From NCBI RefSeq assembly GCF_057098645.1, contig NZ_CM169472.1: a DNA stretch of 64,000 nt; one strand, 5' to 3'. This document shows, one piece after another, positions 6,001-9,000 of this stretch. How positions within the stretch are numbered: the stretch's first letter is position 1; each line of letters begins with the position of its first letter. Made by a program: the position numbers.

Positions 6001-9000
6001 CGATGGTATTCATCGCCACGCGGGCATCGGTAAAGCCGCGAATATTATCAAACCACAGCGCGGGCGCGCCGTCGCCGATACGCCCGGTGGCGTTAGCTGC
6101 TGCTGCCAGATCCGGCTCAGCGTTCATTTCTTCGCTGATTTTCAGTAACTGGCCGTGGTCATCAAGCGCCTGTAAAAAGCTGCGTAAATCATCAAATGCC
6201 ATTATTCATTCTCCTGAGAAAAATTCCGGACCTGCGGCAATCCTTGCCAGCGCCTGGCGTGGGGATGTTCGAAGCCAAATTGATCCAGCACGCGGGCTAC
6301 CACATGGTGGACAATGTCATCTACCGTTTCGGGATGGTTATAAAAGGCAGGCATCGGCGGCACCATCGCCACGCCCATGCGTGAAAGTGCGAGCATATTT
6401 TCGAGATGGATGGTGCTAAGCGGCATTTCACGCGGCACCAGCACCAGTTTGCGGCCTTCTTTGAGCACGACGTCCGCCGCGCGCCCTACCAGGCCATCGG
6501 CGTAACCAGCGCGGATACCGGCGAGCGTTTTCATACTGCACGGAATAACGATCATGCCGTCGGTACGAAAGGAACCTGAGGAGATGGTCGCCGCCTGATC
6601 CGCCGGGTTATGGCTGAAGTCAGCGAGGGCAGCAACATCGCGGGCGCTGTAAGGCGTTTCCAGTTCAATGGTGGTTTTCGCCCACTTCGACATCACCAGA
6701 TGAGTCTCGACATTCGGCATCTCCCGCAGCGCTTGCAGTAATGCCACACCAAGAGGCGCACCGGTAGCCCCTGTCATCCCGACGATCAGTTTCATTGCTT
6801 ACTCTCTTAATTGTTCGTATACGAACATTATTATTAAAATACGCCTCTGTTCTCATTGCGGCAAGCACTGAAAAGTAACAACATCCCCTTCGTCACTGAA
6901 AAACCGCTATGATAGCGGCAGATAGTTTGCCCGGAGTTTACATGGCGTTACGAAATAAAGCGTTCCATCAGTTACGACAGCTTTTTCAGCAGCACACGGC
7001 TCGCTGGCAGCACGAGTTACCTGACCTGACCAAACCACAGTATGCGGTGATGCGCGCCATTGCTGATAAGCCTGGTATCGAACAGGTGGCACTGATAGAA
7101 GCAGCAGTCAGCACCAAAGCAACGTTGGCAGAAATGTTGGCAAGAATGGAGAATCGTGGCTTAGTCAGACGTGAACATGATGCCGCTGACAAGCGGCGTC
7201 GCTTTGTCTGGCTGACTGCCGAAGGAGAAAAGATACTTGCTGCGGCGATACCGATTGGTGACAGCGTGGATGAGGAATTTTTGGGGCGTTTGAGTGCAGA
7301 AGAGCAGGAGCTGTTTGTGCAGCTGGTGCGCAAGATGATGAACACATAGGATGCAAATTGCCGGGTAGGACGCTGACGTGTCTTATCCAGGCGACAAAAA
7401 CACAAGCTTCCCAAACAAAAGAAAAAGGCCAGCCTCGCTTGAGACTGGCCTTTCTGACAGATGCTTACTTATTCGCGGAACAGCGCTTCGATATTCAGCC
7501 CCTGCGTTTGCAGGATTTCGCGCAAACGGCGCAGGCCTTCAACCTGAATCTGGCGAACACGTTCACGGGTGAGGCCAATTTCACGACCTACATCTTCCAG
7601 TGTTGCCGCTTCGTACCCCAGCAAACCGAATCGACGTGCCAGCACTTCACGCTGTTTGGCGTTCAGCTCGAACAGCCATTTGACGATGCTCTGCTTCATA
7701 TCGTCATCTTGCGTGGTATCTTCCGGACCGTTCTCTTTTTCATCGGCCAGGATGTCCAGCAACGCTTTTTCGGAATCACCACCCAGCGGGGTGTCTACCG
7801 AGGTAATGCGCTCGTTAAGACGAAGCATACGGCTGACGTCATCAACTGGCTTATCCAGTTGCTCTGCGATCTCTTCCGCACTTGGTTCATGGTCCAGCTT
7901 ATGGGACAACTCACGTGCGGTTCGCAGGTAAACGTTCAGCTCCTTTACGATGTGAATCGGCAAACGAATAGTACGGGTTTGGTTCATAATCGCCCGTTCA
8001 ATCGTCTGGCGAATCCACCAGGTTGCGTATGTTGAGAAGCGGAAACCACGTTCCGGGTCAAACTTCTCTACCGCGCGGATCAGCCCCAGGTTGCCCTCTT
8101 CGATAAGGTCCAGCAACGCCAGACCACGATTGCCATAACGGCGGGCAATTTTTACCACCAGACGCAAGTTACTCTCGATCATCCGGCGGCGAGAGGCGAC
8201 ATCTCCACGCAGTGCGCGACGCGCAAAATAAACTTCTTCTTCGGCCGTTAACAGTGGTGAATAACCAATCTCACCAAGGTAAAGCTGAGTCGCGTCCAAC
8301 ACACGCTGTGTGGCTCCCTGCGATAACAGTTCCTCTTCGGCCAAATCGTTATCACTGGGTTCCTCTTCTACTAAGGCCTTTTCGTCAAAAACCTCAACTC
8401 CGTTCTCATCAAATTCCGCATCTTCATTTAAATCATGAACTTTCAGCGTATTCTGACTCATAAGGTGGCTCCTACCCGTGATCCCTTGACGGAACATTCA
8501 AGCAAAAGCCTGGTTCCGCCGATTTATCGCTGCGGCAAATAACGCAGCGGGTTTACGGATTTCCCCTTGTAACGAATTTCAAAATGCAAGCGTGTTGAAC
8601 TGGTTCCGGTGCTACCCATGGTTGCTATTTTTTGCCCCGCCTTCACTTCTTGTTGTTCCCGGACCAGCATTGTGTCGTTATGGGCGTAGGCACTCAGGTA
8701 ATCATCATTATGTTTGATGATAATCAGATTACCGTAGCCGCGCAGCGCGTTACCGGCATAAACAACGCGGCCATCTGCGGTCGCGATAATTGCCTGTCCT
8801 TTGCTGCCTGCAATATCAATCCCCTTGTTGCCCCCCTCAGAAGCGCCAAAGGTTTCGATCACTTTGCCCTCAGTCGGCCAGCGCCAGGTGGAGATAGGCG
8901 TACTGGTTGATGTACTGCTGACAGTCGGCTCGGTTGTGCTTGCTGTTGGTACCGTTACAGGCGCTGTGACCGTGGTCGCAGTTGGCTTGTTGTTCGGCAA

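Follow-up and report, generated by a model that had tools for sequence, protein, structure and literature searches.

A full-length rpoS gene on the minus strand

The DNA analysed here is a 64,000-nucleotide stretch (the window) of contig NZ_CM169472.1 from RefSeq assembly GCF_057098645.1, and our subject is the rpoS gene that it carries at 7469-8461, which encodes sigma-S, the sigma factor of stationary phase and of the general stress response. Read on the minus strand from 8461 to 7469, the gene forms an uninterrupted frame of 330 sense codons followed by TAA, with zero internal stops in the reverse-complement translation. From the base composition of the window, the chance that a random frame stays open over 330 codons is about 2.5e-7; a chance origin is in any case irrelevant here, because the product matches the RpoS hidden Markov model (HMM) with 604.6 bits against a cut-off of 394.

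This gene is rpoS, and its product is a group 2 sigma factor of the sigma-70 family. Both RpoS equivalog models of NCBIfam were matched full length, with scores well over their curated cut-offs: in NF004207, the model just cited, all positions are aligned (1-329 of 329), and TIGR02394 reaches 480.7 bits (cut-off 378.7) in a match that starts at residue 48. The models for RpoD, RpoH and other sigma factors were run against the same protein, and every one of them scored under its own cut-off. The Pfam sigma-70 regions follow one another in order, all above their gathering scores (region 1.2 at residues 56-88, region 2 at 94-163, region 3 at 174-248 and region 4 at 262-315), and the solved E. coli sigma-S chains 6kj6_F, 5ipl_F and 6omf_F give full-length matches with E values of about 1e-210. 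The surroundings agree, as the order pcm-surE-nlpD-rpoS, with rpoS directly downstream of nlpD, is the one annotated in K-12, O145:H28 and O157:H7. The initial annotation had named the gene rpoS and placed it at 7469-8461. The name is borne out by the equivalog models, by the Pfam regions and by 100% DNA identity to the rpoS of O145:H28, and the coordinates proved exact; the strand, which had been left out, is the minus strand.

The position of the start codon was weighed separately. Extended mechanically, the open reading frame (ORF) reaches an upstream in-frame ATG at 8497, and a protein starting there would have 342 amino acids, with an N-terminal extension of 12 residues. The ATG at 8497 is, however, without a Shine-Dalgarno sequence, whereas the one at 8461 is preceded by AGGAG at a distance of 7-11 nt. 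Position 1 of the RpoS equivalog model aligns to residue 1 of the 330-residue form, and the reference annotations and the solved sigma-S chains all correspond to that form, RefSeq placing the rpoS start at the equivalent of 8461 in K-12, O145:H28 and O157:H7 alike. We therefore take the ATG at 8461 as the true start and reject the one at 8497, whose use as the start of the real protein is hardly conceivable on this evidence. On the plus strand, three ORFs run antisense to rpoS (7358-8035, 225 amino acids; 7569-7931; 8212-8463); we took them for shadow ORFs of this gene, for which the support is strong.

The allele carries glutamate at codon 33

A gap-free alignment with rpoS of K-12 MG1655 (b2741, NP_417221.1) reveals differences at 2 of the 993 bases: codon 33 changes from CAG to GAG (Q33E), and codon 330 changes silently from GAG to GAA. 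The two proteins have the same length and share 329 of 330 residues, so that Q33E is the sole difference between them. In the O145:H28 strains RM13514, RM12761 and RM13516, all 993 bases of rpoS are 100% identical to those in the window, the protein is the same (WP_000081550.1) and so are the flanking genes. The initial annotation had described a full-length, uninterrupted allele of 330 codons; the translation and the gap-free alignments to the K-12 and O145 genes uphold that description. It had also proposed an alignment to reference rpoS alleles as a check, and there we found no stop and no frameshift, Q33E being the only protein change relative to K-12 and the O145:H28 gene being identical. 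The N-terminal residues that it gave are correct, as is its glutamate at codon 33, which lies within the segment LVEEEPSD (residues 30-37).

Codon 33 was surveyed with a 57-mer centred on it, in three forms, by exact match against 5,426 complete E. coli genomes; the genomes that fall outside the three counts differ elsewhere within the 57-mer. The GAG (Glu) form occurs in 4831 of the 5426 genomes, with natural and pathogenic isolates among the matches listed. The CAG (Gln) form was found in 173 genomes, and the names among the matches listed suggest K-12 laboratory strains (MG1655, ER1709, ME8067). The TAG (amber) form was found in 121, where the matches listed include the K-12 strains W3110, J53 and HMS174, O16:H48 isolates and BLR(DE3). 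Among the matches listed, genomes with CAG or TAG look like K-12-derived laboratory strains or like carriers of K-12 DNA at this locus. Since the GAG form accounts for so many of the genomes surveyed and the listed CAG and TAG genomes are K-12-like, we regard the intact 33E allele as the default natural, wild-type state. W3110, J53, HMS174 and related laboratory strains are rpoS(Am33), with TAG where the window has GAG but otherwise the same sequence around this codon.

The literature gives a similar picture. GAG is the usual codon 33 in natural isolates other than K-12, and it was present in 10 of 10 verotoxigenic strains examined, one of which (1/10) had its reading frame cut short by a stop at codon 243 (PMC2700278). 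The nonsense form at codon 33 is reported to lower sigma-S activity (PMC5454202). The remark in the initial annotation that this codon is a polymorphic or amber site in K-12 derivatives is thus in agreement both with the 57-mer counts and with published work (PMC2700278, PMC5454202). A side observation concerns the B strain BLR(DE3), which bears the K-12 amber codon 33 of rpoS. This strain is a B strain that was given about 85 kb of K-12 DNA around recA, together with a recA deletion (PMC5454202), and we ascribe its amber codon to this co-transferred DNA.

A second count concerned the presence of the gene as such. In 5400 of the 5426 genomes, rpoS was matched over 80% or more of its length at a single place, and 12 genomes gave no match; as these figures describe match coverage and not the frequency of frameshift or nonsense mutations, the codon-33 counts were used instead. 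The exact RpoS protein sequence of the window occurs on at least 1000 contigs. The rpoS described here is ordinary: the gene is known, its form is the one most common in nature, and its genomic context is known as well.

An open frame could still hide a damaging missense change, so that the allele would be full-length and yet attenuated. Full-length missense alleles of reduced activity do exist, an example at residue 128 being reported (PMC5405132), and the one O157:H7 genome examined (PV15-279) has K188Q. In the present protein, however, Q33E is the sole amino-acid difference from the functional sigma-S of K-12; 33E is the majority natural state, and its functional activity is reported to be similar to that of the K-12 form (PMC3074542). 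Residue 33 moreover sits in an acidic N-terminal tail, the first 55 residues including 17 acidic and 3 basic ones; no Pfam sigma region extends to it, the earliest beginning at residue 56, and neither does TIGR02394, which begins at residue 48. We accordingly give an attenuating missense change next to no weight and retain the reading of a wild-type 33E allele. The O157:H7 strain PV15-279 itself resembles the window in having E33, a mutS-rpoS region of the same type and three of the four leader substitutions described below; in addition to K188Q, codons 129 and 273 of its rpoS are changed synonymously, and the window is without all three changes.

Promoter, leader and terminator

The features of the transcription unit are collected in Table 1. 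Over the 1289 nt upstream of the gene, which comprise nlpD and the leader, the window aligns to K-12 with no gaps and 11 substitutions. The promoter, the small-RNA pairing site, the ribosome-binding site, the terminator hairpin and the NlpD protein are all the same as in K-12 MG1655.

Table 1. Features of the rpoS transcription unit, with positions in the window
Feature	Position	Strand	Remarks
rpoS coding sequence	7469..8461	-	330 codons, TAA stop at 7471-7469; product sigma-S (sigma-38)
Codon 33 of rpoS	8363..8365	-	GAG = Glu, the natural-isolate state; MG1655 CAG (Gln), W3110 TAG (amber)
Shine-Dalgarno sequence AGGAG	8469..8473	-	7-11 nt upstream of ATG 8461; read from the sequence; same as K-12
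rpoS leader (5' untranslated region)	8462..9028	-	about 567 nt, mostly within the nlpD coding sequence
Upstream arm of the self-inhibitory leader hairpin	8551..8579	-	AAATTCGTTACAAGGGGAAATCCGTAAAC, -118 to -90; same as K-12
(AAN)4 Hfq-binding motif	8646..8657	-	AACAACAAGAAG; in the leader; same as K-12
Major rpoS promoter in nlpD	9034..9062	-	-35 TTGCGT 9062-9057, -10 TATTCT 9039-9034; same as K-12
nlpD	8524..9663	-	379-amino-acid ORF; holds the rpoS promoter and most of the leader; protein same as K-12 NlpD
rpoS intrinsic terminator	7422..7455	-	15-pair stem, then T-rich tract; begins 14 nt past the stop codon

For the length of the leader and the transcription start we assume the values established in K-12. 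So delimited, the leader differs from that of K-12 by four substitutions (-351, -294, -183 and -162) and zero indels; all four differences are silent, three are common to O157:H7, and the last 160 nt are exactly those of K-12. All four also fall outside the known sites. The substitution at -183 (window 8644), which is among those common to O157:H7, neighbours the (AAN)4 motif, and the T at -351 (window 8812) is found in neither K-12 nor the one O157:H7 sequence compared.

A scan for strict consensus sigma-70 promoters between 7300 and 9800 returned no site, including the rpoS promoter internal to nlpD. Its position was therefore assigned from its identity with the K-12 sequence and from the K-12 literature, on the basis of which we take the TTGCGT/TATTCT pair to be the major rpoS promoter. 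The two regulatory sites in the leader are likewise presumed from established K-12 knowledge: the arm at 8551..8579 would be the pairing site of the small RNAs DsrA, RprA and ArcZ, and the (AAN)4 motif the Hfq site. When the last 140 nt of the leader are folded together with the first codons, the arm is predicted to pair with the region of the Shine-Dalgarno sequence and the ATG (-50.9 kcal/mol, z = -2.75), and this predicted fold would correspond to the known self-inhibitory structure that sequesters the ribosome-binding site.

At the other end of the unit, the intrinsic terminator was found by a terminator scan, and its RNA fold has a predicted energy of about -27 kcal/mol. Similarity to K-12 stops directly past this hairpin, at about 7422, and the hairpin thus marks the edge of the variable segment between mutS and rpoS. 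An Rfam scan of the whole 64-kb window at gathering thresholds gave no match at rpoS. In a permissive scan of 7300-9800, a ctRNA_p42d candidate appeared on the terminator hairpin (7415-7455, minus strand) with 28.7 bits against a gathering threshold of 50; we rejected it as a chance resemblance between hairpins.

Judged by its sequence, the cis-acting unit is conserved throughout, from the promoter, the leader, the small-RNA and Hfq sites and the ribosome-binding site to the terminator. Two of the variants, the T at -351 and the silent GAA at codon 330, are private to the lineage in the sense of a comparison with K-12 and one O157:H7 genome. They might have a subtle effect on the folding, translation or stability of the mRNA, although no result points there. 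That these two variants, together with a T-richer terminator tail, shift the set-point of sigma-S in O145:H28 is in our estimation very unlikely.

Relatives and genomic context

The host is an E. coli closely related to the Shiga-toxin serotype O145:H28. Over positions 1-25000 of the window, the closest genomes are O145:H28 strains at 99.6-99.9% identity, none of them identical. Relative to RM12761, the window differs within these 25 kb by an extra T at 6926, by a small number of single-base substitutions and by a CRISPR array that is three units shorter. The extra T falls between the decarboxylase B gene and the gene for the MarR-family regulator, in their divergent promoter region.

The window opens with the end of fhlA and continues with mutS, pphB, genes D, C and B of the hydroxyarylic acid decarboxylase and the gene for the MarR-family regulator, after which it reaches rpoS. 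Beyond rpoS lie nlpD, pcm, surE, truD, ispF, ispD, ftsB, cysCND, iap, a CRISPR array and the type I-E cas genes, followed by cysHIJ and, on via eno, pyrG, mazEF, relA and barA, by gudP. The variable mutS-rpoS segment (4528-7349) holds pphB, the three decarboxylase genes and the one for the MarR-family regulator; rpoS comes next, and the segment has no ygbI-ygbN. A segment of this kind, without the ygbI-ygbN of K-12, belongs to the O157:H7/enterohaemorrhagic E. coli (EHEC)-1 type (PMC4209514). Downstream of the rpoS terminator the sequences of the window and of K-12 are unrelated, K-12 having ygbN-ygbI where the window has the regulator gene and decarboxylase genes B, C and D. The gene for decarboxylase subunit C is intact in the window (475 amino acids, 4775-6202), whereas in the outbreak strain RM13514 it is a pseudogene with an internal stop.

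From an intact gene to a stress response

Established knowledge of the family covers the release of the leader fold by small RNAs, the proteolysis of sigma-S through RssB and ClpXP, and the control of the regulon. On this basis, the fold would sequester the ribosome-binding site and hold translation back, and under stress the Hfq-dependent small RNAs DsrA, RprA and ArcZ would open it. In growing cells, RssB would deliver sigma-S to ClpXP for proteolysis, with K173 as the recognition residue, and its level would stay low; K173 is present in the RpoS encoded here. Upon stress or starvation, sigma-S would build up and direct RNA polymerase to stress and stationary-phase promoters.

We hold with high confidence that the window carries a chromosomal, intact rpoS of the 33E form in a close relative of O145:H28, and that the RpoS-dependent stress response of this strain is most probably working. 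The initial annotation had gone further, stating that an intact allele implies a functional general stress response. A functional response is indeed probable, but "implies" is too strong: an intact rpoS is necessary and not sufficient, and the strength of the response is not readable from the window. An intact gene is no proof of the response because strains with the same protein differ widely in their sigma-S level.

Several points weigh against a confident functional reading. ECOR strains with this very protein (the K-12 sequence plus Q33E) range from very low sigma-S to the highest level measured (PMC3074542), and sigma-S activity varied among isolates that were all 33E (PMC1852560). Subpopulations of rpoS mutants have been reported in collections of STEC, the E. 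coli that produce Shiga toxin (PMC3874044), and one assembled sequence cannot reveal such subpopulations. Both the level and the activity of sigma-S are moreover set largely by genes outside the window, namely rssB, hfq, dsrA, rprA, arcZ, crl, spoT, clpXP and the ira anti-adaptors. Nothing among our results argues against the identity or the intactness of the gene; the weaknesses concern the step to function.

The alternative that follows from these points is an intact rpoS with a weak or abnormal response, brought about by changes elsewhere (rssB, spoT, hfq, crl or the small RNAs). The published spread of sigma-S levels among strains with the same protein and of activities among 33E isolates speaks for it, and so does the existence of pseudogenes in the window, where cas3 has a 1-bp deletion. 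Set against this are the conserved cis-regulatory region and the two upstream activators of rpoS encoded in the window, relA (744 amino acids) and barA (918 amino acids), which are both full length. Catalase activity was strong in two O145 strains whose encoded RpoS is wild type (PMC3874044), and among carefully handled natural isolates only about 2% are without functional RpoS, through mutations that arose in the laboratory (PMC3484664). A weak or abnormal response is therefore unlikely in our view, though it deserves more weight than either an upstream start codon or a hidden missense change, and we keep to a working response as the most probable state.

These results have little significance beyond routine annotation. 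They establish that a strain related to the Shiga-toxin serotype O145:H28 has not lost rpoS, and the retention of the gene bears on acid and oxidative stress tolerance, on persistence in food and the environment, and on curli or biofilm phenotypes in STEC. Variants null for rpoS are on record in some STEC collections, and an intact gene is mildly informative for this pathogen group, if unsurprising. It also serves as a marker of quality, in that the sequenced culture shows no sign of the rpoS decay typical of laboratory storage.

Other loci in the window

Outside the rpoS region, the type I-E gene cas3 (25033-27698, minus strand) has a 1-bp deletion between 25695 and 25696 relative to RM12761, whose cas3 has 888 amino acids. 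At the deletion site the window reads CATCG-CATC and RM12761 reads CATCGCCATC; the frame is thereby split into ORFs of 785 and 203 amino acids. Either cas3 is truly a frameshifted pseudogene, or the deletion is an error of sequencing. The CRISPR array adjoining iap (18610-18943) consists of 6 repeats at a spacing of 61 nt, and the array of RM12761 is 182 nt longer, which amounts to about three repeat-spacer units.

Between cas3 and cysH, the sok antitoxin RNA (Rfam RF01794) is matched over its full length at 27778-27934 on the minus strand, with 98.3 bits against a gathering threshold of 59. This is the only Rfam match at the gathering threshold in the 64 kb and indicates a chromosomal locus of the hok/sok type. 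Further along, an open frame of 307 amino acids occupies 46406-47329; at roughly the corresponding place RM12761 carries a TPM-domain gene whose annotation is that of a partial pseudogene. Around 46400-47330 the window is estimated, from the coordinate offsets of the flanking genes, to be longer than RM12761 by about 58 bases.

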